A stretch of DNA of 44,453 bases from NCBI GenBank assembly GCA_964370035.1, contig CAYJGT010000002.1, positions 1 to 44,453 on the forward strand, read 5' to 3'. The notes under the pieces are model-generated. The model had not been told where the DNA came from. It saw nothing but the letters and a program-made list of their open reading frames with translations, and ran no database searches. This DNA is from an uncultured Oscillospiraceae bacterium. GTDB taxonomy: Bacteria > Bacillota > Clostridia > Peptostreptococcales > Anaerovoracaceae. Shown piece by piece: positions 1,186-17,380 of the stretch. Both the position numbers and the translations under genes were made by a program. Each line of letters starts with the position of its first letter. Position 1 is the stretch's first letter.

Positions 1186-1393
1186 TTCTAATCCATCTTA
1201 TAGTTCCCTCTATTATCTATGAAATTCTAACAAATGTCAAACTACTCAACTGGCTCATAATTAGATATTCCCTCTAAATCAAGAGGAATACACCCTTCTT
1301 TTTTATAAACCCTTTTGCGGTAAAAGAAAAACCTATAATAAAGAGGTGATATTTCCTCATCAATAGCTTCACCTTAACTATATGAAACACTTT

Positions 1394-1421
1394 GAAAAAG
1401 AGCATGCTAATTTTAGCATGC
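1394..1421 (-). terminator. rho-independent terminator after the EamA gene
   Basis: GCATGCT/AGCATGC stem (1402-1421) followed on the minus strand by a T-run (plus-strand A-run 1394-1400), about 60 nt downstream of the stop at 1483. Confidence 0.5.
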
Positions 1422-1482
1422 CCTTTCTATAAATCGTCACATTATGTTTTTATAATTAGTATAAAATTCTTGTCTAACATTA

Positions 1483-2373
1483 TCAAAGTTTATCTAATTG
1501 TTTTCTTTTAATAAATCCCAACTTAGTTTCAGAACAAATAATTCCAATAAAAATTAAGGTGAACCCAATAAGCATCCTAGGTGTAGGGTGATCCATCCCA
1601 AACATTATCGAAAATATGGCACCAAATGGAGCTTCCAAAGAAAAGAAAATTGCCGCCATAGATGTAGGAGTAAATCTTTGAGAATAATTTTGTATCAAAA
1701 ATCCTAATACGGAAGGAAATATTATCAAATATCCTAATTGGAAAATTGCTTCTGACGGAATAATTGATTCAGGCATAGGCGTTGTTATAAATGCAGTTAT
1801 CCATGCAAATATGGAAAAAGCTCCAAACTGAACCACCGTAAGAGCAAATACATCTTTCCCACGCGTGAATTTTCCTACTACCACAATTGTCCATGCGAAA
1901 CAGATTCCTGCAATCAAACCAAAGATTACACCAATTTCCCCTGTTAAAGATCCGTTTAAGGATATAAATCCTATCCCAGTTAAACAAACAACACCTGCTA
2001 TTATATTATACCTATCCGGCTTCTTTTTATCCACTAACCAATACAGAAAGGGAACTATTACACAATAGATTCCGCATAGAAAGGCTGTGGTTCCAGGGGT
2101 AATTCTCTCTAAGGACATAATTTGAAAGGCATATGTAGCATATAAAAAAAAGCCCATCAAACTGCCTCTCCAAATATAGCTTAAGTCTATCTTCCTAATT
2201 TTTTTCCACATTATTATCGCTATGACAATAAAGCAACCTGTAAATCTATAGGCTAATAGCCAAAATGCAGGCAAACTATCTAAGGCATCCTTTGAAACCA
2301 CAACCGCACTACCCCATAAAATTGGTGCCAGAATCAGAAGAAATCTCATTTTTTTATTCGAGTTATTATTCAT
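1483..2373 (-). CDS. EamA/DMT-family transporter
   Basis: 296-aa ORF with about 10 TM helices and the duplicated EamA-type architecture. Confidence 0.75.
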   Translation of the reverse strand: MNNNSNKKMRFLLILAPILWGSAVVVSKDALDSLPAFWLLAYRFTGCFIVIAIIMWKKIRKIDLSYIWRGSLMGFFLYATYAFQIMSLERITPGTTAFLCGIYCVIVPFLYWLVDKKKPDRYNIIAGVVCLTGIGFISLNGSLTGEIGVIFGLIAGICFAWTIVVVGKFTRGKDVFALTVVQFGAFSIFAWITAFITTPMPESIIPSEAIFQLGYLIIFPSVLGFLIQNYSQRFTPTSMAAIFFSLEAPFGAIFSIMFGMDHPTPRMLIGFTLIFIGIICSETKLGFIKRKQLDKL

Positions 2374-2501
2374 AAGAAGCCCCTTTGTTTTACAATTTTA
2401 TATCATTATTTGCTTTCTTTTTTAGATTTAACTTTTATTAACTTAAAGTTCTTGTGCTTCTAAGTTTATATTTATTAGTTGGCATTTGAATTATCTCTCT
2501 G

Positions 2502-2921
2502 TTACTTGTCCAGTTCTAATATTTCTCTCAAGGTAGGGCTTAAGGGCCTACTAACCCTGTTAGCAGCATCATAACCAACAAAAACACTTTCTAAGGTAAC
2601 TAGTATTTCTTCTTCACCTTTACGATATACTTCAAACATGACCGTAAAGCTTCGCTCACTTGACTTTAAGATATACATCCCAACCTCTATAATATCATCT
2701 GCCATTACACTTCCCATGTAGTCAATGGTATTCTTTCGGTGGCAGATTTCAGAATCTAGCTCATTTACAAGTTGAGTCGTGGTAAAGCCTCTGGATCTAA
2801 AGAAGTCTTCAAGAGTAAATTCACTGTAAATTCCATATACTGAATTGTGGACTATGCCTTGTTGATCAATTTCATTATATCTAGTTGTAATGGTTGTAAA
2901 GTGTATACAATCCTTCCTCAT
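2502..2921 (-). CDS. hotdog-fold acyl-CoA thioesterase (4HBT/YbgC-like)
   Basis: 139-aa ORF. The N-terminal RYNEIDQQGIVHNSVY is the typical YbgC/4HBT catalytic-Asp region, and the size fits the family. Confidence 0.7.
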   Translation of the reverse strand: MRKDCIHFTTITTRYNEIDQQGIVHNSVYGIYSEFTLEDFFRSRGFTTTQLVNELDSEICHRKNTIDYMGSVMADDIIEVGMYILKSSERSFTVMFEVYRKGEEEILVTLESVFVGYDAANRVSRPLSPTLREILELDK

Positions 2922-2996
2922 AATTTTCTCCTTGCTGTATAAAATATATACTTTCTCTTTTTTGCACGACTCCTCTTTTCACATCAGACAATAAAT

Positions 2997-3263
2997 CTAT
3001 TTCGTTTTATCATCTTTTTTTATTAGCGCATTGTATCTTGTAATTGCAGCTTTTGCACTGAAAGAAGGCTTTCTAATCATATGATTGAAAGCTTTGGGTA
3101 CACATATGTCAACACAATAACCACAGTTAATGCATAGCCTAAAAGAATCCGTTGTAGTAATTGGACAACCATTTCCCTCGTCACCAATTGCTTTTTGCGG
3201 ACATACAACTATACATTTTCGACACTTTATGCACTTTTCTTTATCAATAGTAAATAATTCCAT
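2997..3263 (-). CDS. 2x[4Fe-4S] ferredoxin-domain protein
   Basis: 88-aa ORF with two CxxCxxCxxxC(P) motifs (CIKCRKCIVVCP and CINCGYCVDICVP). Confidence 0.8.
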   Translation of the reverse strand: MELFTIDKEKCIKCRKCIVVCPQKAIGDEGNGCPITTTDSFRLCINCGYCVDICVPKAFNHMIRKPSFSAKAAITRYNALIKKDDKTK

Positions 3264-3458
3264 ATTTTCTGCCTTTCAGTAATAGCTATTAAGTGTTTCT
3301 CTAGTATATCACCAAATACCTTGCACCACCTATAAAAGGTGGTAGCAAGGCCTTTATTTTTTTGCATAACATTTAACTGCTGCTAGGCTTTTAATGCGTA
3401 TGTCTTTGTTTATTCTGATTTCAACAATTTCCTTCACAAGCATTTAACCTTTTTCAGA

Positions 3459-4664
3459 TTACAGCGATCCTTGAACTACTGCCCCACAGTCTAAAAGCTC
3501 ATCAATCCTCTCTTGAGAGTATCCTTCGCCTTTTAGAACCTCAATTGACTCAGCTCCTGGAGTTATAGGCGCTGCATTATATGGGTATACAGGAGTTTTG
3601 CTGAATTGAATAGGTGTGTTTACTGCCTTCATTTTTCCAACTATTGGCTGATCTATTTCTACAATTACATCTAAATTTACAGTTTGAGGATTGTTAATAA
3701 ACTCTGCTGAAGTATTAACTGCTGAGGCAGGAACTCTAACTTCAAATAGATCATTTTCAATTTGGCGTTTATCCATTTCTTTTGTAGCCGTTTCTATTTC
3801 AGCAATAAGCTCTGCTCTATTATCTACACGCAGCTCATTATCCAGGAAACGAGGGTCAGACAAAAGCCTTGTTAGCCCTAGCTTTTCACAAGCAGCTTTC
3901 CACTCTTCTTCAGAAGTCACTGCCATTGTTACATGTCCATTTTTTGCGACAAACTCTCCAAATGGAGCATACCACGGATGATGATTCCCAGTTCTAGCCG
4001 TAAATTTTCCTTCTATTGAATGTTCAAGAACTGCTGCTTCACACATATAAAATGCACAATCAAGCATTGCAATATCTACTCTAATACCTTTTCCTGTTTT
4101 CTTCCTATTTAGCAGTGCCATTGATAGGCCTTTCAGCAGATTTAAGCCAGCCCATGTATCGCACATCGAAAATCCAGGTTTTATTGGAGCTTGACCCTCT
4201 TCCCCTGTTTGCCCAATAAGGCCACTCCTTGCCGCAGCAATTATGTCCATGCAAGGCAGGTGTGATAAAGGCCCATATGTTCCAAACCCTGCAATAGATC
4301 CATAGATCAAGTTAGGATTAACTTTAATCATTTCTTCATAACCTAAGCCAAGCTTTTCTAAAGTTCCAGATTTATAATTCTCTATAACTATGTCTACTCT
4401 AGAAACTAAGTCTAACACAACTTTCTTGCCCTCTTCCGACCTCATATCTATTGCTATACCTTTTTTTCCCCTATTATACTGGCAAAAATAAAGGCTAACA
4501 TCATTAACATAAGGACCATATTCCCTGGATAAATCTCCCCCTCCAGGTCGCTCAATTTTTATCATTTCTGCACCTAAGTCCGATAGAAGCATTCCACAAA
4601 ATGGTGCTGCTAGTACTTGTGACAAGTCTAGAATTTTTATTCCTTCAAGAGGTCTTTTTTTCAT
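3459..4664 (-). CDS. family III CoA-transferase (CaiB/BaiF family)
   Basis: 401-aa ORF. The N-terminal LEGIKILDLSQVLAAPFCGMLLSDLGAEMIKIERP is the classic family-III start. A GFSMCD segment is present at the expected catalytic-Asp region. Confidence 0.85.
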   Translation of the reverse strand: MKKRPLEGIKILDLSQVLAAPFCGMLLSDLGAEMIKIERPGGGDLSREYGPYVNDVSLYFCQYNRGKKGIAIDMRSEEGKKVVLDLVSRVDIVIENYKSGTLEKLGLGYEEMIKVNPNLIYGSIAGFGTYGPLSHLPCMDIIAAARSGLIGQTGEEGQAPIKPGFSMCDTWAGLNLLKGLSMALLNRKKTGKGIRVDIAMLDCAFYMCEAAVLEHSIEGKFTARTGNHHPWYAPFGEFVAKNGHVTMAVTSEEEWKAACEKLGLTRLLSDPRFLDNELRVDNRAELIAEIETATKEMDKRQIENDLFEVRVPASAVNTSAEFINNPQTVNLDVIVEIDQPIVGKMKAVNTPIQFSKTPVYPYNAAPITPGAESIEVLKGEGYSQERIDELLDCGAVVQGSL

Positions 4665-4737
4665 TCTCTATATTTTGTACGTCCTTAAAAAATTGAAAGC
4701 TAACGTACTCTCCTTTCCTATTAATTTCTAACAGTAA

Positions 4738-5940
4738 TTAAATTACGCCTTTTTCTTGTAATTTTGACATCATAGAAGCATCAATATCTAAACTAGCATA
4801 AATTTCAGCATTATTTGCTCCCAAAATTGGCGCTGGCGGAATACTTTTCTCTACAGTCCCTAGGAATTTTACTGGCCTTCCAGGCATTTCCACATCTCCA
4901 ATCGCTGGGTTCTTAACAGTGTGAATCATATTTCTTTCTTTTAATTGAGGGTCTCCAAGGGCTTGTTCCGTAGTACCACACATTGTTCCAGGAATCAGAA
5001 TTTCATCACAAATATCCGCAAATTCTTTCATAGTGTAGTCAGCTAATAAGTCCTCGAGTTTGTCCCTAAGATCACCAAAATAATTATATCCTCTTACTGA
5101 ATTTGAGTGATATTTTTCGTCAGTAGCCCATTCTGGCTTTCCAAATCTTATAGCAAGCTTTTTCCACTGATCATCGGAGGAAGCCCCAATGGCCACATAA
5201 CCATCTTTACACTTAAGAATATCATATGGGTTTATATTAGGGTGGGCATTACCTGTTCGCATCGGATCATCTCCCGTTGCACTGTAGGTTATGACCTTAT
5301 CTTCACTAATTGCGGCTAAAGTCCCACATAAAGAAGTTTCCACTAATTGGCCTAATCCTGTATCCATAGCATCCATCAAAGCTAAAGTTATACCTGCCGA
5401 AAGAAAGCTTGCACTATATTTTTCTCCTATTGAAAATCCTATTCTTGTAGGTGGATTTTCTGGAAATCCTGTTACATGCATGGACCCAGCTTTTGCTTGG
5501 GCAATAAGTTCAATCTGAGGAAAATCCACGCCTTCTCCTTTAGATCCGTACCCTGTTGTTCTTCCATACACAATAGACGGTTTTTCTTTTGCAATATCTT
5601 CATATCCTAATCCAATTGCCTCTAACGTGCCAATTGGGAAATTTTCTAAGACAACATCTGCAGTCTGTACCAATTCTTTAAAAATCTTTTGCCCTTCTGC
5701 AGACCATAAATTTAATGTAATACTTTTCTTTCCTCTATCTCTAAAGGCTTGATGTGGGCTTGCTCCTTTTTTTAACGGAAGCATTTTGCGAAGAGGATCT
5801 CCCTCTCCAGGGGCCTCAATCTTAATCACTTCTGCCCCATAATCAGCTAACTCCATTCCTGCATATCCAGAAAGGGTCATTAGGTCTAAAACTCTAAATC
5901 CTTCTAAAGGCAACATGTTATTTCTCCTTTTCTCATTCAA
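4738..5940 (-). CDS. family III CoA-transferase (CaiB/BaiF family), second paralog
   Basis: LEGFRVLDL...LADYGAEVIKIEAPGEGDP is a family-III N-terminus. The likely true start is the ATG at 5916 (MLPLEG...), preceded by AAAGGAGAAATAAC. By eye, the aligned catalytic position reads GFSIGE (Glu rather than Asp). Confidence 0.85.
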   Translation of the reverse strand: MNEKRRNNMLPLEGFRVLDLMTLSGYAGMELADYGAEVIKIEAPGEGDPLRKMLPLKKGASPHQAFRDRGKKSITLNLWSAEGQKIFKELVQTADVVLENFPIGTLEAIGLGYEDIAKEKPSIVYGRTTGYGSKGEGVDFPQIELIAQAKAGSMHVTGFPENPPTRIGFSIGEKYSASFLSAGITLALMDAMDTGLGQLVETSLCGTLAAISEDKVITYSATGDDPMRTGNAHPNINPYDILKCKDGYVAIGASSDDQWKKLAIRFGKPEWATDEKYHSNSVRGYNYFGDLRDKLEDLLADYTMKEFADICDEILIPGTMCGTTEQALGDPQLKERNMIHTVKNPAIGDVEMPGRPVKFLGTVEKSIPPAPILGANNAEIYASLDIDASMMSKLQEKGVI

Positions 5941-6354
5941 AAAGTTTCTATTTTTTAATTTTTATCAAGTTCTCATTTTTATTTATTTAACTATATAATC
6001 AAATTATTAATTTTGACAAATTCAATTCCTTTATTAAATTAACTCTTTGTCAAATTAGCACTTTGGTTGAATTCATCCATTGCTCCAACTAATTTGATTT
6101 TATTAACTTCTTTGCTAGGGGTACTGCTTAATCATGGCAGTACCCCTAACCACTTCTCACAATTAATAAACAACAACATTTTGGAGTATCATATATAATC
6201 TTTCTACAACAACCTTTGTCTCTACTAAAGCAGCATATTCCTCTTCAGCCTTTTAGTACGGTAAGTTCTTCCTTGGAAACAAAAGACGCAATACTCCTTT
6301 ATTTTTTCTGCAGCTAGACACCACTTTTTTTAGCTACTTTTTCTGCTTCATCAA

Positions 6355-7998
6355 TTATTTTTGATCAATTGATTTCCCTTTTGCAACGGCCTCTTCATCA
6401 GCTTCTTTTTCTTGGAGTTCAATATTTTTTCTATGGAGCCCATTTCGAGAGTCTTCTTTAAGCCATTTGAGTAATCCTATTTCCATAATAATAACTATAA
6501 CTATAAATGGCACAGATATTATTATTGCTATGTATTTTATAGCATCAAAGCCTACATCTGTTAATACAATGCTCATAGGAATAATCGCTAGTAGTACGCA
6601 GAAGAAAATTCTCAGTAGCATAGGAGGAGTTCCCCTCTTTGTTGCTGTTTCGGCTAACGCTAATGAGGCCGAATCTAGTGATGGAACTAAGAAGCATATA
6701 ATCAATATCAGTATTGCTATTGGGCCTATTACTGCTCCCATCGGAAGTGTGCTTATAACTTCAAGTCCAACTTGCTCTGTTATACCTTCCTCTGTTACTA
6801 AACCAACTACATCTACTTCTCCATTCACAAATGTGTTAATTGAGAAGCTACCTAGAACCCCAAAGAGTATAATACTTCCTGATGTAATACCAAGCATAGT
6901 TGCTAGGGCAACTTCTCTAATTGTTCTGCCTTTAGAAACCTTAGCAATAAAGATTGCCATCATTGCTAAGTAATTAAGGTAGAATGCTTGGAAATAAATT
7001 GTCCAACCTTCAGCAAACCCGGTATTACCAATAGGGTCTGTAAATAGAGTCATTCTTATTGATTGATCAATGGTAATTCCTAGAGAGTTAACTATATTCT
7101 TAAATATAAACTCTGCTGCCCCACTAAAGAATAAAACATATAGCAAAAATATTCCGGTCAATATAGCTGCGAGGTTAGATATAACCTTCATCCCCTTATG
7201 CGTTCCTAAATATGATGTAAAGGTATAGATAAGACCGATAATTACAATTATTGCCACCTGTAACGTAGATGTAACTTCAATTCCAAAAACCCTATGAGCC
7301 GCTTCAGATGCCAAAGGAACTCCAAGGCCTAGTGAGGAACTAAGTGCACCTAATATACCAAATATAACTACAAAATCGATAACTTTTCCTATCGCTGACT
7401 TACCTTGAACTTTTTCTCCAAGCATCGCTGTACAAACAGCACTAGTTTGGAATGATGACACCTTTCTGACATACACACCATAACCTATAGCTACTGCCAA
7501 TACTGTGTACATAGCTTGATTAACAATACCCCAATGATAAAATTGATAAGGCAATGCCGTTTCTAATGCTTCTTGACTAAGCGGTTCTATTCCCAATCCA
7601 GGCGAGGTGTAGTAATATACCCACTCGTAAAAAGACCAAGCGATTGCTGATGATGCAAGTGACGCTAATATCATCATAATTATATAGCTTGAAGTACTAA
7701 ATTCTGGCTTTGTATCTCCTAGTCTAATTTTTCCGTATTTGCTAACACAAAGAAATATTGCTAATAAGAAAGTCACAAAAGTAAATACTTCAAAGAATGG
7801 CCCAAGAATAGCTATCATTTCCCAGAAAAATCCCGATATACCTCCTATAGTACCTTCCGGGTTTACTACCATAAGTATTATAAATCCAATAAGAATCACT
7901 ACACTAGTTATAACTAATCCCACTTCAACATTTGCATATTTTTTGCCATTGTTTGTTTCTATATTATTTCCTGTATCCTTGTTCATAATTCTCTCCAT
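6355..7998 (-). CDS. BCCT-family betaine/carnitine/choline-type transporter
   Basis: 547-aa ORF with about 12 TM helices. It has Trp/aromatic-rich BCCT-like segments (AWSFYEWVYYY, GWTIYFQAFYLNYLAMMAIFIAKVSKGRTIRE). Confidence 0.88.
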   Translation of the reverse strand: MERIMNKDTGNNIETNNGKKYANVEVGLVITSVVILIGFIILMVVNPEGTIGGISGFFWEMIAILGPFFEVFTFVTFLLAIFLCVSKYGKIRLGDTKPEFSTSSYIIMMILASLASSAIAWSFYEWVYYYTSPGLGIEPLSQEALETALPYQFYHWGIVNQAMYTVLAVAIGYGVYVRKVSSFQTSAVCTAMLGEKVQGKSAIGKVIDFVVIFGILGALSSSLGLGVPLASEAAHRVFGIEVTSTLQVAIIVIIGLIYTFTSYLGTHKGMKVISNLAAILTGIFLLYVLFFSGAAEFIFKNIVNSLGITIDQSIRMTLFTDPIGNTGFAEGWTIYFQAFYLNYLAMMAIFIAKVSKGRTIREVALATMLGITSGSIILFGVLGSFSINTFVNGEVDVVGLVTEEGITEQVGLEVISTLPMGAVIGPIAILILIICFLVPSLDSASLALAETATKRGTPPMLLRIFFCVLLAIIPMSIVLTDVGFDAIKYIAIIISVPFIVIVIIMEIGLLKWLKEDSRNGLHRKNIELQEKEADEEAVAKGKSIDQK

Positions 7999-8143
7999 TT
8001 TCCAATCTTCATATGATGGTAAAACCCCTAAGATTATAATAGTTGTAAAACCCTTTCCTATACAATCTTTTAATTTTCATCATATTCAAATTTTTATTCG
8101 TCAAACTATTCAGTTCGTCAATATTTTCTGACAATTCTACTTT

Positions 8144-8191
8144 AAAAAAGTCCGCCTAATGACAAAGTTTTTATTTTATCAGTAGGCGGAC
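8144..8191 (-). terminator. terminator-like hairpin between the acyl-CoA dehydrogenase and BCCT genes
   Basis: 13-bp stem with 1 mismatch (8150-8162 / 8179-8191) and a 16-nt loop, followed on the minus strand by TTTTTT (plus-strand A-run 8144-8149). It lies about 48 nt after the stop at 8239. Confidence 0.55.
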
Positions 8192-8238
8192 GAACGCTCA
8201 ATTAAAAACTACCTTCTAGCCTTTAACTGTATTCAATT

Positions 8239-9411
8239 TTACCAACCAGTATAAATCTCAGGTCCACGCTTTTTAATTTGTCCGCTTACTACGATACGCT
8301 GAATTTCTGAAGTTCCTTCCCATATTCTGTCAACACGCGTATCTCTAAATAGACGCTCTACTGGATTTTCTCTCATATATCCACGTCCACCTAAGATTTG
8401 AACTGCTTTATCACAAACACGACCAACCATCTCAGAAGTGTAAAGCTTTATTGCTGAAGCTTTTGCATGACGCATTTTACGATCTGCTTCTGGTTGAGAA
8501 ATTTCCCAACAAACACGATATAGCATGCTCTTTGCAGCCATAATATCCATAGCCATATCAGCTAGCATAAACTCTATTGCTTGGCAGTCACGAATAACCT
8601 GTCCACCAAATGTCTTACGAGTTGCAGCAAATTCATTCGCTACATTAAGAGCACGAGTAGCTCCACCAACGCAACGAGCAGCAATTCCTAAACGAGCTTC
8701 TACAAACCAGTCTTTAGTAAAATCAAACCCTTGTCCTACTTTACCTAGGATTCTTGACTCGTCAACTACTACATCTTCAAATACGAACTCAGGGTGTTTA
8801 AATGCAAAATGGTGAGTAAATTGAGGTGTACGTTTAATGCTTACTCCCGGTGCATCCTTTTCCACAAAGAATACCGTAGCTTTGTCAACGTCTCCATCAA
8901 CATGTGCATGAACTAATAAGAAATCAGCTACATCTCCAACTGTTACATACCATTTTTCTCCGTTAATCTTATATCCACCGTCACATTTGTCAGCTCTAGT
9001 CAAACACATTGTTGGGTCAGAACCAGCATCTGCCTCTGTTATTGCATACGCATCTCTACGTTTGTTTTGGCAAGCTGGAATCAAATATTCTTCAATCTGA
9101 TCTTGGTTGCCAAAGCACATTGGGTATGAAGGCTGTGGTACAGCGTCCCAGATAGCTCCTGTTGACTGGCCTAATTGCTCACTAACTAGCATTTGCTCAA
9201 ATAATGTCATACCTTGTCCGCCATGTTCTTTTTTATGGTTAGTTGCATTAAATCCCCAGTCCATTACCTTTTGATTAATAATTGCATGTGTTTCTTTAGT
9301 TAACCCATCATTTTCTTCGCATTCCATTTCATGCGGAAATAATACCTCTTGCGTAAATGCTTTTGCTTTTTCCGCTAACTCGCGATGCTCTTTGCTTAAT
9401 GTGAAATCCAT
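8239..9411 (-). CDS. acyl-CoA dehydrogenase family flavoprotein
   Basis: 390-aa ORF with the ACAD fold signatures (AYAITEADAGSDP, GEKWYVT, QILGGRGY) and the C-terminal RIWEGTSEIQR motif, which retains the catalytic Glu. Confidence 0.9.
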   Translation of the reverse strand: MDFTLSKEHRELAEKAKAFTQEVLFPHEMECEENDGLTKETHAIINQKVMDWGFNATNHKKEHGGQGMTLFEQMLVSEQLGQSTGAIWDAVPQPSYPMCFGNQDQIEEYLIPACQNKRRDAYAITEADAGSDPTMCLTRADKCDGGYKINGEKWYVTVGDVADFLLVHAHVDGDVDKATVFFVEKDAPGVSIKRTPQFTHHFAFKHPEFVFEDVVVDESRILGKVGQGFDFTKDWFVEARLGIAARCVGGATRALNVANEFAATRKTFGGQVIRDCQAIEFMLADMAMDIMAAKSMLYRVCWEISQPEADRKMRHAKASAIKLYTSEMVGRVCDKAVQILGGRGYMRENPVERLFRDTRVDRIWEGTSEIQRIVVSGQIKKRGPEIYTGW

Positions 9412-9726
9412 ATTTTCTCCTTCCCATTAATTACAATTTCAAATACCTTTAATCCTAAAATGTTGTTATAAGTTATACTCTTCAATAACTATATTTGTTA
9501 TTATTCGCATTATATTCTCTGCATATAACTGCCTCGCAATACCTTTTTACAAAAAAATATATGCGAATTGTCCACTTAACTACTTCCCGTAATGGTTTTT
9601 TCTATAAAACACACAAAGTATCCACCTAGGTACACTTTTTCATTGCTATTCATAGTCATATAATGTAAAATTACAGTAATAACTTTTCCCTTTATACTTT
9701 ATCGCGATTGTTGTTTAGGAGATAAT

Positions 9727-11028
9727 ATGAAAAAAGGTGAATTTTGCAAATATTTTAATGTACCGCTTAGTACCGTAAGATTTTATATCGAATGCGGCCT
9801 TCTCGTTCCAAAAAAATGTGGACACCAGTTTATTTTTTCTGAAGAAGATATTAGAGATATGAATATAATTAATAAGCTACACGATTTAGCTTTTTCTAAT
9901 TCTGAAATAAAAAACTACCTAAAGGTAGTTAGATTATATGCGGCAAACGATCCTTCAATAGATGAAAAAGAGTTAAGTTTATTTCATGAAAAAAGGCATC
10001 AATTAGAAGCAAGTATAAGAACTATGAGTAAACAATTGGCATCATTGGAAGCTTCGATCCAAGAAAGAGGTTCCGCACATCAAGAAGAACCTGTTGCTAA
10101 TTCTTTAGGAGTCCCTCTAGACTTTTTACCTTTTTTGGCCTGCCCTAACTGCACTTCCTCTTTAAATCTGGTAGATGCAAAAATTAGCAATATGAAAATC
10201 TCCCATGGAGCATTCCTTTGCGATTGCGGTTATAGAATTGCCATAGACGATGGAATTCTACTAGTGGAAGATCCTCTCTCTAATTATTACGAGAGTGATG
10301 AATTTGATATGGACCACTATGGAGTCGTAGCCTCTAAAGATCCAGACTTTGTTTTCTTTGAGCATATGGATAGAATCAACCCAGAAGTTGTAACCTTGTT
10401 AAATAAAGCTTACTCTTGGGGAAACACTAAACTCCAAGAAGCACCTTTATGCAAACCTGTAATTTTTTTGCCAGATTTATCTAGCCACTATTTTTATATG
10501 ACCATGCATGAAGAGTATTACAAAGATGCCCTAATAGTTATATCTGGTTTTTCTAAAAAACACATCACTTCTATAAAAAAACATATTGAAATTTTCAACA
10601 AACATAATTTAAAAATACTATTCGTAGCAAATACAATTCATACCTTGCCTCTTAAACCGAAAATTTTCGACCTTTGTATTGACATGGGAGCATCATACAA
10701 CTTTTCCTACTACCACAACTACTCTATGTTTACACGGGTTCGTCCCTATTTAAGCAACAGTTGTCAAACCATAGGGCTAAGTAAGTATTATGATAAAAAC
10801 TCTCAAACCTTAAAGGAAATAAAAAAGTTATACAAAAATTCATATTGCAACTATTCATTACTATCTACATTTAAGCACGAACTTTGCAAAAATCAATTAG
10901 CTTTAGTAGAGTTAACCGAAATAGGTACTATCAAAAATCCTGGGGATTACTATAGGCATCATATTCCTGGCGAAACACAAACTTTCTTCACCTACATCGC
11001 TGAAGCAAATACATCGGAAAAAATATAA
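9727..11028 (+). CDS. MerR-family transcriptional regulator fused to a Trm112-like zinc ribbon and a degenerate methyltransferase-like C-terminal domain
   Basis: Residues 1-70 form a MerR wHTH (FCKYFNVPLSTVRFYIECGLL). Next come a coiled coil, then CPNC...x24...CDCGYRIAIDDGILLV (Trm112-type ribbon), then an alpha/beta-like domain of about 250 aa. In that domain VIFLPDLSS sits where SAM motif I (VLDLGCGTG) would be. Confidence 0.75.
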   Translation: MKKGEFCKYFNVPLSTVRFYIECGLLVPKKCGHQFIFSEEDIRDMNIINKLHDLAFSNSEIKNYLKVVRLYAANDPSIDEKELSLFHEKRHQLEASIRTMSKQLASLEASIQERGSAHQEEPVANSLGVPLDFLPFLACPNCTSSLNLVDAKISNMKISHGAFLCDCGYRIAIDDGILLVEDPLSNYYESDEFDMDHYGVVASKDPDFVFFEHMDRINPEVVTLLNKAYSWGNTKLQEAPLCKPVIFLPDLSSHYFYMTMHEEYYKDALIVISGFSKKHITSIKKHIEIFNKHNLKILFVANTIHTLPLKPKIFDLCIDMGASYNFSYYHNYSMFTRVRPYLSNSCQTIGLSKYYDKNSQTLKEIKKLYKNSYCNYSLLSTFKHELCKNQLALVELTEIGTIKNPGDYYRHHIPGETQTFFTYIAEANTSEKI

Positions 11029-11069
11029 CATTGATTATAATAATAGGTCACAACTAGTTTAAAAAAGGG

Positions 11070-11999
11070 TTAGCTTTCATTATTAAAGTTACCCTTTTTA
11101 TTTTTTCGCACCCAATTTACACCTACAATTCCGCCTAGCATACACAGAGTTCCTATTAATGTTCCAATTGTAGCCGCTTCTCCTAAGAATAATATTCCTG
11201 CAATTACTCCTACTACTGTAGTTCCAATTAGCACTAAAGTTCCTGCAATATGTATTGATAATTTTGACAAAGTATAGTTATAAGCAAAGTAAGCCCAAAA
11301 TGAGCTTAGGGTTCCCAAATACAGTATAGGTAACAAATGGTCTGTTTCTAAGAATACCTTTGTGTAGGTTTCCACTCCAAACCCAAGCACAAAGTTTAAA
11401 GTATTGAAAAATATTAGACCTACAATATTCATCATATAGGTTATTTCAAAGGCAGAATAGTTTTTCGAAACTTTCGCGACAACCCCTGCATAAATAGCGC
11501 CCACTACCAAAGTAGTTAGTAAGAAGATATATCCTGTAATTTCTCCTCCTACTTTTAAATTTCCGCCAAATAAGGCTACAATTATTACCCCTAAAATAGA
11601 AATAATAATGCTGCAAAATTGTATTTTAGTAACCCTTTGTTTTAAAAATAGTGCTGCAACAATCAAGGATGCCATAGGCGCTAAAGCTAATACTATTGAA
11701 GCTTCCGTAGCTGTTGTTAAAGCAATCCCTTCCACTTCCAACATTCCATATATACATGGTTCCAATATTCCTATCAAAAGAAGTATCCCTATATCTTTTT
11801 TCTTGAATCTAATTTCAATTTTTCTAATTAAAATGAATAGTGTCATTACAATAACCGCAATAATCATTCTAGATGCCATCAGTTCAATTAAATGCAATTC
11901 ATTAGTAGTATCTTTGACTACTGCTATTGCTCCTCCCCAAGTCACGGCTGATGATACACCTAGTATATAAGCTAAAATTGGCTTTTTTGTCTTCCCCAT
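11070..11999 (-). CDS. EamA/DMT-family transporter
   Basis: 309-aa ORF with 10 TM helices and the EamA duplicated architecture. Confidence 0.75.
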   Translation of the reverse strand: MGKTKKPILAYILGVSSAVTWGGAIAVVKDTTNELHLIELMASRMIIAVIVMTLFILIRKIEIRFKKKDIGILLLIGILEPCIYGMLEVEGIALTTATEASIVLALAPMASLIVAALFLKQRVTKIQFCSIIISILGVIIVALFGGNLKVGGEITGYIFLLTTLVVGAIYAGVVAKVSKNYSAFEITYMMNIVGLIFFNTLNFVLGFGVETYTKVFLETDHLLPILYLGTLSSFWAYFAYNYTLSKLSIHIAGTLVLIGTTVVGVIAGILFLGEAATIGTLIGTLCMLGGIVGVNWVRKNKKGNFNNES

Positions 12000-12174: not shown

Positions 12175-13812
<1,638 letters not shown>

Positions 13813-13979
13813 TTAGTCTCCTTAATACTTCTATTTAGTTATTTTTTCTTACAAATTCCCTATTACTTCAAATAAGGTTTCGACTCACAACTCTTTATAT
13901 AATTATGTTTTCTTCTTACGCCACAGGGAATTATTTTCTGTTGTCAATATTTGTCTTTCAACATATTATTATACTAATC

Positions 13980-14261
13980 CTACTTTTCTATTTTTGCTAA
14001 AATATCTCTTTGAGAAAGAATCGTATACTCTTGTCCTTCGTATTTAACATTTGTTCCAGCATACTGGGCAAAAATTACTGTATCCCCTTCCGCTAGTTCC
14101 ATTGGCTCTTCTTCACTTCCCGGTCCAACTGCTAAAACATTAGCAATTTGTGGTTGCTCTTTTGCTTGTCCTGGCAGCACAATTCCACTAGCAGTTTTTT
14201 CCTCAGCTTCTAGCCTTTTAATAACAACTTTTGTTCCCAACGGTTTAATTCCTACACCCAT
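13980..14261 (-). CDS. groS: co-chaperonin GroES (Hsp10)
   Basis: 93-aa ORF with a typical GroES sequence ([25 protein letters not shown]), directly upstream of groEL. Confidence 0.97.
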
Positions 14262-14396: not shown

Positions 14397-15434
14397 TTAG
14401 TTGAATAAGGCTCCCACTACAAAGTCGAACTTTTCTCTTTCTTTTTCTTCAGCTTTTATTAATTCCAATTCATGCTCCAACGCTGCAATAACTGCTCTTT
14501 GTTCTTCTAAAGCCTCATCTAAACTTTCTTGCTGTATTATTGCAACATCCGAATATAAGGAGGCCATCTGATTTACAACCTTATCATCCCATTTTGAACT
14601 TGTTGCATATCTTTTATTTACATCTGTTGCAGTGGTACCTGAATAAAGACTTCCACTAGGATGCAAATAATTATTTCCTAAACCTTCAGCAACTGCCATT
14701 ATATTATCTTCTTTGGTGGCATAACCACTCGAGCCATATCCAAACATATTATTAGGCCTAAAGTTAATGGTTCCCCAAGCGCTTTCTAGTGCTGCTATAC
14801 TTACGAGAAACATAGCATTTACATTATGAGTTTTTTCCGCCTCAATAAAAGCCTCTTCTAAACCTACAGTTCCCCCTTTTAATAAAGGCGCTAACTCCTC
14901 AGCAGTAACTCCACTTGGCTGAGATAGATCCATTTCCCATATTTCACTATGGGTAAAAATATCCACTTCTTTTTCTATAGCCTCTAAGGCCTGATTCGCT
15001 ATGGCTATTTCAACTTCTGCCTCTGCAACTTTTCTTTCAAACTTCAAAACTTCTTGCGCTTCAACTGAAGCTAAATGTCCTACAAATGCTCCTGCACCTA
15101 TAAGAAGTAATACTACAACAAAACTGCTAGCAACTATAAAAGGTCTTTTCTTTATTTTTCTAATAAGTTTTACTATTATTTTCTTCTTTCCTTTTTCTGC
15201 CTTCGCTTCTTCTTCCACTTTTTCTATATTGCAACTTACTTGGAAGCTATTCTCGCAATTCTCAACAAATGCATTTTCCTCATTTTCCAAGATACCTTTC
15301 CCTTTATTCTTTTCTATGTCCTTTAGGCAATCCTCTATAATTGCATTATTTACTTTCTTCTTATTATTCAACTTAACTTTTTCAATCTTACACTCTCTAA
15401 TATACTTATTTAATCTTAATTTAGACGTTCTCAT
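14397..15434 (-). CDS. membrane-anchored glucosaminidase-domain (LytD/FlgJ-type) cell-wall hydrolase
   Basis: 345-aa ORF with a lysine-rich N-terminus, one TM helix (FIVASSFVVVLLLIGAGAFVG) and coiled coils. The C-terminal domain (NAMFLVSIAALESAWG...NNMFGYG) is typical of mannosyl-glycoprotein endo-beta-N-acetylglucosaminidase. Confidence 0.65.
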   Translation of the reverse strand: MRTSKLRLNKYIRECKIEKVKLNNKKKVNNAIIEDCLKDIEKNKGKGILENEENAFVENCENSFQVSCNIEKVEEEAKAEKGKKKIIVKLIRKIKKRPFIVASSFVVVLLLIGAGAFVGHLASVEAQEVLKFERKVAEAEVEIAIANQALEAIEKEVDIFTHSEIWEMDLSQPSGVTAEELAPLLKGGTVGLEEAFIEAEKTHNVNAMFLVSIAALESAWGTINFRPNNMFGYGSSGYATKEDNIMAVAEGLGNNYLHPSGSLYSGTTATDVNKRYATSSKWDDKVVNQMASLYSDVAIIQQESLDEALEEQRAVIAALEHELELIKAEEKEREKFDFVVGALFN

Positions 15435-15817
15435 TTTTTCCTTCTTTCATATCCGTATATCCTGCTGTCTTTTTTATGTTTGCTATCCTAATTATAAATT
15501 TCCCTTACATTTAATAAACAAAAAAGCCACCTACTACGTTGTCTTTATTCCAACATTTCAATGGCTCGTAGTTATTTTATCATATTTAGCCGCATATTGC
15601 AAACTTGCCTATTCAGCGAATTGCATGCACAAATATCAGTATTGATATTATTCTTATCTTTTAGAAAATTTTAAAGCATATTTTATAAAGCTAAGCAAAG
15701 TATAGTCTTTTTAACCACTGACACTTCTTTCCGTAAATATATTTCTTTTATCCTATTCTTTCACTTCACCTTAATAGTGGTGATTAATTTCTAGCCATTA
15801 CTTTATCTCTTGATTCA

Positions 15818-17380
15818 CTACGCTTTACTTTCTTCTAGTTTCGCTGTAATTGTAGCTTCTTCGCCATCCCTTATTATTTTTATTTCTATGCTATCTCCAG
15901 GTTCCCTATTTGAAATCTCAGCTTGAACATCAGCTGCGCTTTCAATCTCATTACCATCAATCGATAATAATTGATCTCCTATTTCTAGGCCTGCTGATTC
16001 AGCTGCCGACCCTTCGGTTATCTCCCCAATGTAAACTCCTGGAGTTGATACCCCATATTGATTTGCAGATTCTTGACTTACAATATCAATCATTCCAATA
16101 CCTAATATTGCTTTTCCTGTAACATATCCATCTTCAATTATTGATTCAGTAACAGATTTAACTTGGTCTATTGGAATTGCAAATCCCAATCCCTCAACTT
16201 CACTTCCAGATGATTTTGCTACTACTATCCCTATTAGTTCTCCATTAGCATTAAATAGTCCTCCTCCTGAGTTCCCAGGGTTAATAGAAGCATCCGTTTG
16301 CAATAAATTCATTGTCTGTCCTTCAATGCTAATTTCTCTATCCAAAGAAGATATAATACCTTCTGTAACAGAGCCTCCCAACTCACCTAGGGGGTTTCCT
16401 ATTACAACAGCCTGTTGTCCCAACGCTACATCTTCAGAATTCCCCATTACCGCCGCGGATAATTCTTCAGCTTGAATTTTAATAACTGCTAAATCACTTT
16501 CGGTATCACTTCCTACTATCTCTCCTGAATATTCTTCGCCATCTCTAGTGGTTACAGTAATCTTTGAAGCTCCTTCAATCACATGATTGTTTGTGACAAT
16601 ATAGCCATCTTGGCTGATAATAACACCACTCCCTGCTCCTTCTTCTACCATTGAAGGGTTAAAAGGATTATATTTAGCTACTTCAGTTTTTATTTCAACT
16701 ACCGTATCAGCGCTTACTGCTGCCACTTGCTCGGTAGTTGTTCCTCCTTGATTAGCAGAGGATACCGGCTGCGCTATAGACTGGAATAATGTAGTCCCAT
16801 CACCAAAAAGATTAACAGCCAAAACTCCTCCCCCAAATCCAAATAGCAAACTCACTACTGCAAAAATAGCGCCTACTTTTAGGAATTTTCTTCTTTCCTT
16901 CTTCTTTGCAGATTTACTCCCTAATTCCTGTTGATTATCTGAATTCTCAATATAAGTTGGATGCTCATTATTATTTATAAGATTGCTTTCAAAGTCGCCT
17001 CTCATCCCATTGTTCTCCTCTGCTTTTGCTCTTATATCAGTGGCTGACAAAGTATTATTTTCTTCCAAGGCTTCTTTTTCGTCAGCAGCCATAGATTTTA
17101 CACCATTGCCAAAACTAGAGTTCTCATTTTCATCTTTATCAAGAGTGATATTTATTTCTTTTTCCTTCTCTTCTGCAAGCTCTAATTCCCGTCGACTATT
17201 TTCAATAGGAAGTTCGTGATTCTTATTATTTACATAAGAATCATGCTCATTTAATCCCATATCTTCTGTGAGCTTCTCTGTTACTTCAGTCTCATTTAAT
17301 CCCATCCCTTCTGTGGACCTCTCTGTTTCCCTTAAGTCATTTGCATTGCTTTCTCTGTCCTTGTTCATTTCTTCCTCCAA
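15818..17380 (-). CDS. htrA: HtrA/DegP-family serine protease with PDZ domain and a long acidic N-terminal extension
   Basis: Trypsin-like core (TNNHVI, DLAVIKI, GNSGGGLF catalytic Ser) plus a C-terminal PDZ domain (GLEIGDQLLSIDG). One TM helix lies at about residues 165-190. Confidence 0.9.
   Translation of the reverse strand: MEEEMNKDRESNANDLRETERSTEGMGLNETEVTEKLTEDMGLNEHDSYVNNKNHELPIENSRRELELAEEKEKEINITLDKDENENSSFGNGVKSMAADEKEALEENNTLSATDIRAKAEENNGMRGDFESNLINNNEHPTYIENSDNQQELGSKSAKKKERRKFLKVGAIFAVVSLLFGFGGGVLAVNLFGDGTTLFQSIAQPVSSANQGGTTTEQVAAVSADTVVEIKTEVAKYNPFNPSMVEEGAGSGVIISQDGYIVTNNHVIEGASKITVTTRDGEEYSGEIVGSDTESDLAVIKIQAEELSAAVMGNSEDVALGQQAVVIGNPLGELGGSVTEGIISSLDREISIEGQTMNLLQTDASINPGNSGGGLFNANGELIGIVVAKSSGSEVEGLGFAIPIDQVKSVTESIIEDGYVTGKAILGIGMIDIVSQESANQYGVSTPGVYIGEITEGSAAESAGLEIGDQLLSIDGNEIESAADVQAEISNREPGDSIEIKIIRDGEEATITAKLEESKA

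Follow-up and report, generated by a model that had tools for sequence, protein, structure and literature searches.

The closest described counterpart of the locus analysed here is the bbu cluster of Emergencia timonensis SN18, in which bbuA encodes an acyl-CoA dehydrogenase (ACAD)-like flavoenzyme, bbuB and bbuC class III CoA-transferases, bbuD a di-[4Fe-4S] ferredoxin, bbuE a BCCT transporter and bbuF a thioesterase (PMC8364193). It has been established that in this organism BbuB/C make gamma-butyrobetainyl-CoA, and that BbuA then splits off trimethylamine (TMA), leaving crotonyl-CoA (Rajakovich et al. 2021, PMC8364193). The cluster has alternatively been named gbu, and the work on gbu has been summarised (PMC10653785). 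E. minutum ATCC 700079 and A. desmolans ATCC 43058 are further carriers for which the conversion of gamma-butyrobetaine to TMA has been shown. BbuD is regarded as non-essential and is missing in some carriers, and both BbuD and BbuF are dispensable for activity in Escherichia coli. The subject of the present analysis is a stretch of 44,453 nucleotides (hereafter the window; positions 1 to 44,453 of contig CAYJGT010000002.1, GenBank assembly GCA_964370035.1) from an uncultured bacterium labelled Oscillospiraceae and placed in the Anaerovoracaceae by GTDB, and in particular the six genes that it carries between positions 2502 and 9411. Judged by its sequence, this block is an intact orthologue of the known bbu/gbu cluster, a new example of a known pathway and not a new pathway, and it very probably serves the conversion of gamma-butyrobetaine to TMA.

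The six open reading frames (ORFs) are co-oriented on the minus strand, and the positions and protein families put forward for them in the original prediction, which was made from the sequence alone, are upheld by the ORF boundaries and the Pfam domains (Table 1). The two CoA-transferase frames, taken as 4738-5940 and 3459-4664, match CoA_transf_3 with Pfam E-values of 1e-97 and 6e-110, respectively, and the two CxxCxxCxxxC motifs of the ferredoxin (2997-3263), at C11 and C44, are intact. All six ORFs are full length in comparison with their SN18 counterparts, to which they are 78% (BbuA), 65% (BbuB), 72% (BbuC), 49% (BbuD), 66% (BbuE) and 52% (BbuF) identical by tblastn. A single boundary has to be amended. 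The upstream CoA-transferase does end at 4738, but its start had been set at 5940, where the mechanical ORF reaches a TTG; the ATG at 5916 (MLPLEG...), which has an AAGGAG 7 nt upstream and corresponds to the start of E. timonensis BbuB, is most likely the one used.

Table 1. Features of the bbu locus and its surroundings; the coordinates are those of the window, except in the last seven rows, where they refer to the locus named.
Feature	Coordinates	Strand	Description
bbuA orthologue	8239..9411	-	390 aa; FAD-dependent acyl-CoA-dehydrogenase fold; predicted gamma-butyrobetainyl-CoA TMA-lyase; Pfam Acyl-CoA_dh_N/M/1
bbuE orthologue	6355..7998	-	547 aa; BCCT-family transporter; predicted gamma-butyrobetaine importer; Pfam BCCT, E 1.6e-104
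bbuB orthologue	4738..5916	-	392 aa; family III CoA-transferase subunit, E165; Pfam CoA_transf_3
bbuC orthologue	3459..4664	-	401 aa; family III CoA-transferase subunit, D169; Pfam CoA_transf_3
bbuD orthologue	2997..3263	-	88 aa; 2x[4Fe-4S] ferredoxin; Pfam Fer4 dicluster families
bbuF orthologue	2502..2921	-	139 aa; hotdog (YbgC/4HBT-type) acyl-CoA thioesterase; Pfam 4HBT_2/4HBT, TIGR00051
EamA/DMT-family accessory transporter	1483..2373	-	directly downstream of bbuF; Pfam EamA
MerR-family regulator	9727..11028	+	433 aa; divergent from the cluster; MerR_1 helix-turn-helix at residues 2-66 (Pfam)
groES-groEL	12175..14261	-	groES 13980-14261, groEL 12175-13809; 2.8 kb upstream of bbuA, same strand
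Promoter-like TTGCGA-19 nt-TATAAT	9509..9539	-	upstream of bbuA; read from the sequence
Intrinsic-terminator-like hairpin and U6	8144..8191	-	directly after bbuA; hairpin 8150-8191; -23.6 kcal/mol, z = -6.6
14-bp GC-rich hairpin	6114..6150	-	after bbuE; no U-tract; -29.1 kcal/mol, z = -6.6
Indel island, ~9.9 kb	1197..11114		EamA, bbuF-D-C-B-E-A and MerR-like gene, nothing else
Outgroup locus L038	6533-15073		examined
Outgroup locus L050	7984-13630		examined
Outgroup locus L066	4781-11170		examined
groEL in L012	3063-4718
groEL in L030	7693-9291
groEL in L034	6069-7715
groEL in L015	16615-18528

The extent to which this gene set is shared was evaluated by searching prokaryotic genomes, one for each species, with the window ACAD as query, which gave 80 loci (L001-L080), and by mapping all six window proteins onto these loci with tblastn. 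The six-gene set is syntenic in more than 30 other genomes, including those of the validated A. desmolans and E. minutum, so the arrangement is not due to chance. Moreover, the resemblance to bbu reflects real orthology, since the window proteins are 49-78% identical to those of SN18 versus only 23-29% to E. coli CaiA (27%), CaiB (23-26%) and CaiT (29%). NCBIfam returned matches to many equivalogs, CaiA, CaiB and CaiT among them, all of them below cut-off, and no curated family claims the six proteins. In agreement with the original prediction that this is not an enterobacterial cai operon, the ORFs scanned across the window contain neither an AMP-ligase domain of the CaiC type nor an enoyl-CoA hydratase domain of the CaiD type, and no cai genes were found in the window. 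The cai reading is thus ruled out by the low identity, by the lack of CaiC and CaiD, and by CaiA, CaiB and CaiT scores that fall far below the NCBIfam cut-offs. Every sequence-level trait by which bbu/gbu membership can be judged is found in the window cluster, and those of cai are wanting. The correspondence with the E. timonensis cluster put forward in the original prediction therefore holds for all six genes. The further suggestion that the enzymes might be distant from BbuA-C, and hence form a new TMA-lyase-type pathway, is unsupported because these three proteins are close to their counterparts (78, 65 and 72%).

At 78% identity to SN18 BbuA, the window ACAD lies above the threshold of more than 70% amino-acid identity by which the discoverers recognise a BbuA homologue; its identity is 76% to the protein of E. 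minutum, 77% to that of A. desmolans, 82% to that of L012, 86% to that of Clostridium aminobutyricum DSM 2634 and 96% to that of L001, a metagenome-assembled genome (MAG). The window protein and E. coli CaiA were joined with the ACADs of the 80 loci plus three second copies in a neighbour-joining tree of 85 sequences with 100 bootstraps. The phylogenetic placement called for by the original prediction came out in its favour, as the 40 ACADs from Bacillota loci form one clade with 100% bootstrap and the window protein lies inside it. Nearly all 40 members have bbu genes alongside; the contig of L005 shows none, and three contigs end within the cluster. Within this clade the window ACAD pairs with that of L001 (100%) and then with that of L002 (99%), and it belongs to a basal grade together with L012, L003, C. 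aminobutyricum and Aminipila-type sequences. The sister group is composed of proteins from Psychrobacter, Marinobacterium, other Gammaproteobacteria, Bacillaceae and, at about 60%, Alphaproteobacteria.

The catalytic glutamate that had been read in the motif IWEGTSEIQ is indeed present: E365 falls opposite the catalytic Glu of medium-chain acyl-CoA dehydrogenase (MCAD; IYEGTSQIQ). This residue cannot tell a lyase from a dehydrogenase, because the W-E-G core is invariant in 80 of 80 ACAD homologues. Three other positions do separate the bbu clade from the 43 outgroup homologues. Position 57 is Thr in 40/40 clade members and mostly Ile or Pro outside; position 92 is Pro in 40/40 and Trp or Phe outside; and position 155 is Tyr in 39/40, versus Phe in 40 of the 43 outgroup proteins. 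The window protein has T57, P92 and Y155. By HMMER alignment to human MCAD, P92 corresponds to Glu99 and Y155 to Trp166; in structures of MCAD, Glu99 is found at the floor of the acyl pocket and Trp166 beside the flavin, on the side facing the electron transfer flavoprotein (ETF). It is plausible that the change from Trp/Phe to Pro at the putative trimethylammonium site, along with the change at the flavin, would have helped to turn a dehydrogenase into a lyase.

Two observations concern the evolution of bbuA itself. Between L001 and the window BbuA is 96% identical, but BbuB, BbuC and BbuE only 73-78%, BbuD 59% and BbuF 49%; at the DNA level bbuA reaches 84% versus about 72% for bbuB, bbuC and bbuE. 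Either BbuA is under far stronger constraint than the other cluster genes, or it has been separately exchanged. In addition, the clusters of two MAGs each contain bbuA twice (L002, 297-1466 and 5192-6361; L003, 522-1688 and 6737-7903), in the order A-B-C-D-F(-F)-(EamA)-A'-E, and each copy pairs in the tree with its partner from the same MAG.

The neighbourhoods of the outgroup ACADs provide a frame against which this function can be weighed. In the non-bbu loci (L037-L055 and L057-L080) the ACADs are 58-76% identical to those of the bbu clade, and BbuB, BbuC, BbuD and BbuF occur in none. The three outgroup loci that were examined each contain an ADP-forming acyl-CoA synthetase of about 720 aa beside the ACAD; an enoyl-CoA hydratase and a short-chain dehydrogenase/reductase (SDR) are further neighbours in L038 and L050, as are a hexapeptide protein and an AraC-type regulator in L038. 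A BCCT transporter lies near the ACAD in L038 and in several other outgroup loci. This context is beta-oxidation-like, and the ACADs are probably gamma-butyrobetainyl-CoA dehydrogenases; the clusters probably represent the oxidative, bco-type route from gamma-butyrobetaine to carnitine. The ACAD neighbouring bcoAB is reportedly a gamma-butyrobetainyl-CoA dehydrogenase. BcoAB of S. meliloti was used as a gamma-butyrobetaine:CoA ligase by Rajakovich et al. The modules described for a Psychrobacter plasmid are cntAB and caiAB, and not the outgroup ACADs found here. BbuA would, on this evidence, have arisen from an enzyme that already bound gamma-butyrobetainyl-CoA, and gamma-butyrobetaine is favoured as the substrate of the window cluster because of this ancestry.

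Several points weigh against the assignment of the window cluster to TMA release from gamma-butyrobetaine. The tree is distance-based and not a maximum-likelihood one. The three tested strains fall in a 21-member crown sub-clade (100%), outside of which the window protein lies with L001 and L002, so that the experimentally tested strains are all of the crown clade and none comes from the sub-lineage of the window. The gap in identity is narrow, the window ACAD being 76-78% identical to the tested BbuAs versus 72-74% to non-bbu homologues from Gammaproteobacteria. BbuD (49%) and BbuF (52%) are the least conserved cluster genes relative to SN18, and the enzymes that would act downstream on crotonyl-CoA are absent from the window.

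It is in the light of this basal position that a different preferred substrate has to be considered, as the original prediction had allowed. A lineage that split before the tested enzymes could use the same logic, namely CoA activation followed by flavin-dependent elimination of the amine at C4, on another quaternary or tertiary amine. The placement of the ACAD outside the validated crown clade, the distinct gene order with an extra EamA gene and a regulator unlike the neighbours of other bbu loci speak for it. The alternative is nonetheless quite unlikely: BbuC, BbuB and BbuE are 72%, 65% and 66% identical to E. timonensis proteins specific for gamma-butyrobetaine, all three clade-specific residues (T57, P92 and Y155) are shared, and the outgroup ACADs adjoin BCCT transporters and ADP-forming synthetases which, if of BcoAB type, would mean that the gamma-butyrobetainyl-CoA pocket predates the bbu clade.

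A role of the ACAD in true redox chemistry, as gamma-butyrobetainyl-CoA dehydrogenase or as crotonobetainyl-CoA reductase, is very unlikely; the cluster would in that case convert crotonobetaine and gamma-butyrobetaine into each other, with the ferredoxin as redox partner, and release no TMA. The retained catalytic Glu of the ACAD, the ferredoxin gene and the existence of 58-76% identical homologues in aerobes, whose synthetase, hydratase and SDR neighbours suggest real dehydrogenation, are compatible with such a role. However, E. timonensis BbuA keeps both the Glu and a ferredoxin neighbour and yet is a redox-neutral lyase, and the window ACAD groups with the bbu-context clade (100% bootstrap) and not with those homologues, has P92 and Y155 rather than W/F92 and F155, and is accompanied by neither a hydratase gene nor, anywhere in the 44 kb of the window, ETF genes. 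Finally, an unrelated acyl-CoA pathway resembling bbu at the domain level only (BaiF-type, formyl/oxalyl-CoA or butyryl/glutaryl-CoA dehydrogenase), for which the merely sub-threshold NCBIfam matches to CoA-transferase and ACAD equivalogs could be invoked, is exceedingly improbable given that all six genes are orthologous to those of bbu (49-78% identity) and syntenic with them, the best structure and NCBIfam matches being far weaker (AcrC, 217 bits against a cut-off of 640; YfdE, E 3e-73), and these generic ACAD, BaiF and formyl-CoA readings are effectively refuted by identity, synteny and tree placement.

The two CoA-transferases of the window are 30% identical to each other and keep the adjacent, B-then-C order. 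In SN18, BbuB and BbuC likewise share 30% identity, are both required and form a hetero-oligomer, and the catalytic roles of the monomers were left undetermined by their discoverers (PMC8364193). The original prediction had pointed by eye to a difference at the aligned catalytic acid (GFSMCD versus GFSIGE) and taken it as a sign of non-redundant roles. A MAFFT alignment bears this out: Asp169 of E. coli CaiB stands opposite D169 in the 3459-4664 product and E165 in the 4738-5916 product, SN18 BbuC and BbuB follow the same pattern, and the placement is the same in HMMER alignments to YfdE, SUGCT and a formyl-CoA transferase. The C-D-T-W core is invariant in 33/33 positional BbuC orthologues, while the catalytic Asp is absent from all BbuB orthologues, most of which have Glu, with Gln in L002 and L003 and Ser in L012. 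Non-redundancy is thus in line with both the published joint requirement and the conservation of Asp versus Glu, Gln or Ser. In the simplest reading, BbuC would be the catalytic subunit through D169 and BbuB an obligate non-canonical or structural partner, which would explain why neither transferase works alone. A family III enzyme made of two paralogous subunits has a precedent in BbsEF, the succinyl-CoA:(R)-benzylsuccinate CoA-transferase (PDB 9fn0); both window proteins match both BbsEF chains, but distantly (E 1e-24 to 1e-43), and the substrate differs.

A side observation relates to bbuC in E. minutum ATCC 700079 (L034, CP016202.1, 12427-16138), where the gene is split by an insertion of about 2.4 kb carrying an opposite-strand ORF of 482 aa. 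The N-terminal 124 residues are encoded at 12430-12801 and the remainder at 15290-16135, and bbuC is intact in the related MAG L035. This strain is reported to convert gamma-butyrobetaine to TMA despite the split bbuC of its deposited genome.

From orthology, synteny and residue conservation we infer the substrate, the release of TMA, the subunit roles and, as discussed below, the regulation of the window cluster. By homology to E. timonensis, BbuE would import gamma-butyrobetaine, and the BbuB/BbuC hetero-oligomer would transfer CoA to it from acetyl-CoA or another short acyl-CoA. FAD-containing BbuA would then eliminate TMA from C4 of gamma-butyrobetainyl-CoA in a redox-neutral reaction to yield crotonyl-CoA, which housekeeping enzymes encoded elsewhere would use as a carbon source or electron sink. 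Plausible roles for BbuD and BbuF are keeping the flavin active and oxidised, and CoA housekeeping, respectively.

Gene order differs among bbu clusters. It is A-B-C-D-E-F in SN18, A-B-C-D-F-E followed by groEL in Oscillospirales/Butyricicoccaceae, and A-E-B-C-D-F followed by EamA in the window. The latter order, EamA included, recurs in L001, a MAG labelled Oscillospiraceae, and in L012, Epulopiscium sp. Nuni2H_MBin003. Orthologues of the EamA protein are encoded directly after bbuF in L001 (53%), L012 (49%) and L003 (42%), and the EamA gene is a probable seventh gene of this cluster variant. The functional unit probably reaches beyond 2502-9411, to EamA, the MerR-like gene and the nearby groES-groEL.

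A consensus scan for promoters and terminators showed no enrichment over shuffled sequences; the two hairpins and the promoter-like element with the 19-nt spacer (Table 1) were read directly from the sequence. The hairpin after bbuE is possibly a terminator or an RNA-stabilising element. The presence of strong hairpins after bbuA and bbuE suggests that the cluster would be read as bbuA / bbuE / bbuBCDF(-EamA), or with attenuated read-through. A 45-nt direct repeat with 78% identity is found just upstream of bbuB (5950-5994) and upstream of bbuE (8065-8109), both copies being preceded by promoter-like hexamers; it may represent an operator or leader common to both genes, a relic of the rearrangement by which bbuE changed its place, or chance in AT-rich DNA. 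A scan of the whole window with Rfam at gathering thresholds detected no riboswitch and no other RNA family, and a tRNA scan of the window detected none.

The candidate regulator divergent from bbuA has few relatives. Its helix-turn-helix is followed by a predicted long helix, a CxxC...CxC zinc-ribbon-like motif and a domain of about 250 residues, and the C-terminal 300 residues gave nothing significant in Pfam or PDB sequence searches. The AlphaFold model is of low confidence (pLDDT 62.5); in it, the C-terminal part matches only class I S-adenosylmethionine (SAM)-methyltransferase folds, and the sequence shows no clear sign of the customary glycine-rich SAM motif. With low confidence, the domain may be regarded as degenerate methyltransferase-like. 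Among 5.8e9 proteins there are only two homologues, with 39% identity (L083, 1317-2648; L084, 933-2237), each encoded divergently from a gene for a non-bbu family III CoA-transferase (38-44% identity); tblastn against the 80 bbuA-type loci found no homologue. The 19-nt spacer of the promoter-like element upstream of bbuA is over-long, as is typical of MerR-controlled promoters. The MerR-like protein is a plausible candidate for a local regulator of the bbu cluster, and together with its homologues it may form a small new family of regulators for CoA-transferase catabolic clusters. That this early-branching bbu lineage, with its island and near-orphan MerR protein, differs functionally, either in acting on another quaternary amine or in having a new quaternary-amine-sensing MerR regulator, appears unlikely, if worth bearing in mind.

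Comparison with a close relative shows that the cluster forms part of an indel island (Table 1). In L082, whose GroEL is 96% identical, GroES-GroEL-EamA-DAGK-CarS are contiguous and the whole bbu block is missing; its DNA (5139-7413) aligns to window positions 12061-11115 and then jumps to 1196-240. The EamA gene of the island is consequently a second one, the block being located between the other EamA gene and DAGK. Searches for direct or inverted repeats bounding the island gave only short, chance-level matches, the window contains no transposase or integrase, and GC content does not differ (35.5% in the island versus 36.7% in the rest of the window). With neither a GC shift nor a transposase or integrase, there is no support for a recent insertion of a mobile element. 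The rest of the window is of housekeeping character, with groES/groEL and genes for an HtrA-like protease, TyrRS, PEPCK, Upp, Sua5, RF1, CoaX, Dus, FtsH, TilS, TatD, MetRS and a carboxyltransferase.

A gene for a DDE_Tnp_1 transposase-like protein of about 560 aa, with 40-97% identity to the SN18 copy, is found beside bbu in several genera (for instance L022, 7931-9643, minus strand; also L004, L005, L007-L009, L013, L015, L021, L033-L035 and L056). Most of these loci have it immediately upstream of bbuA and in divergent orientation, L013 and L015 have it on the downstream side, and the window lacks it. Its persistence near bbu suggests a mobile unit or a domesticated gene. According to the published view bbu has been inherited only vertically (PMC10989800), and the adjacency of this gene sits uneasily with it.

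The proximity of the chaperonin genes has parallels elsewhere. Of the 40 bbu loci, about 20 have a groEL gene no more than 10 kb from the cluster, and its placement varies: it follows bbuE directly in Oscillospirales, immediately precedes bbuA in L012, the Epulopiscium MAG, and lies upstream in loci of the E. minutum type. Both the association of groEL with bbu and the need for native GroES/EL have been published (PMC10653785). The groES-groEL genes of the window are probable providers of folding help for the Bbu proteins. They constitute an ordinary housekeeping locus, with about 78% identity to Anaerovoracaceae GroELs and synteny conserved in L082, and their adjacency may reflect the position of the island, not a dedicated chaperonin. 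Judged by GroEL, the source lineage stands nearest to the Anaerovoracaceae: the window GroEL is about 78% identical to those of Aminipila, Anaerovorax and C. aminobutyricum, and its sole close relatives are MAGs. A look-up of the exact window ACAD sequence in public assemblies gave no record.

As to distribution, the window adds an intact bbu cluster from an uncultured Anaerovoracaceae-like lineage and leaves the picture of the pathway itself unchanged, and bbu is seen not to be limited to the type arrangement, as it occurs in further lineages and in other gene orders. Among the loci retrieved, C. aminobutyricum DSM 2634 (L004, 10001-16070) is a cultured carrier whose bbu cluster is complete and arranged A-B-C-D-F-E, its BbuA being 85% identical to that of SN18. 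This classical organism of gamma-aminobutyrate fermentation and 4-hydroxybutyryl-CoA dehydratase was presumably isolated from swamp mud. If so, it contradicts the published claim that only host-associated bacteria carry bbu; the published inventories name no more than a handful of carriers, all host-associated. TMA formed from carnitine-derived gamma-butyrobetaine is a precursor of trimethylamine N-oxide, which is linked to cardiovascular risk. Identity cut-offs of about 70% in metagenome screens are tight, because the nearest non-bbu relatives of BbuA, found in dehydrogenase-type clusters of aerobes, reach 68-76%; a 70% bbuA cut-off could admit outgroup ACADs, 74-76% identical to basal BbuAs, if basal BbuAs serve as references. 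Furthermore, T57, P92 and Y155, as well as the Asp/Glu asymmetry of BbuC and BbuB, offer testable handles on the origin of the lyase and on the working of the heteromeric transferase.

The E. coli caiTABCDE operon has some types of component in common with the window cluster: it employs a BCCT transporter, an ACAD-fold flavoprotein and a family III CoA-transferase in the turnover of the CoA esters of gamma-butyrobetaine and crotonobetaine. It differs in requiring the CaiC ligase and the CaiD hydratase, both missing from the window, and in its CaiA, a reductase that releases no TMA. The bco-like clusters differ in activating the substrate with a ligase instead of a transferase, in having W/F92 and F155 in place of P92 and Y155, and in their predicted dehydrogenation; in the window, no ATP-grasp/Succ_CoA_lig synthetase of about 720 aa, enoyl-CoA hydratase or SDR is encoded beside the ACAD. 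L001 and L012 share the identical A-E-B-C-D-F-EamA order; in L001 the other proteins are 49-78% identical and the flanking genes are unrelated to those of the window, and in L012 groEL is immediately upstream of bbuA. E. timonensis and many other carriers have the DDE-transposase-like gene upstream of bbuA, a place taken in the window by the MerR-like regulator. With the SN18 cluster the window shares six orthologous gene families, transferases that are 30% identical, the Glu of BbuA and the association with a chaperonin; no cai genes lie within its 44 kb. It differs from the SN18 cluster in the order A-E-B-C-D-F, in the extra EamA gene downstream, in a host lineage whose GroEL is only about 78% identical to those of named Anaerovoracaceae genera, and in an ACAD that, unlike that of SN18, lies outside the tested crown clade.

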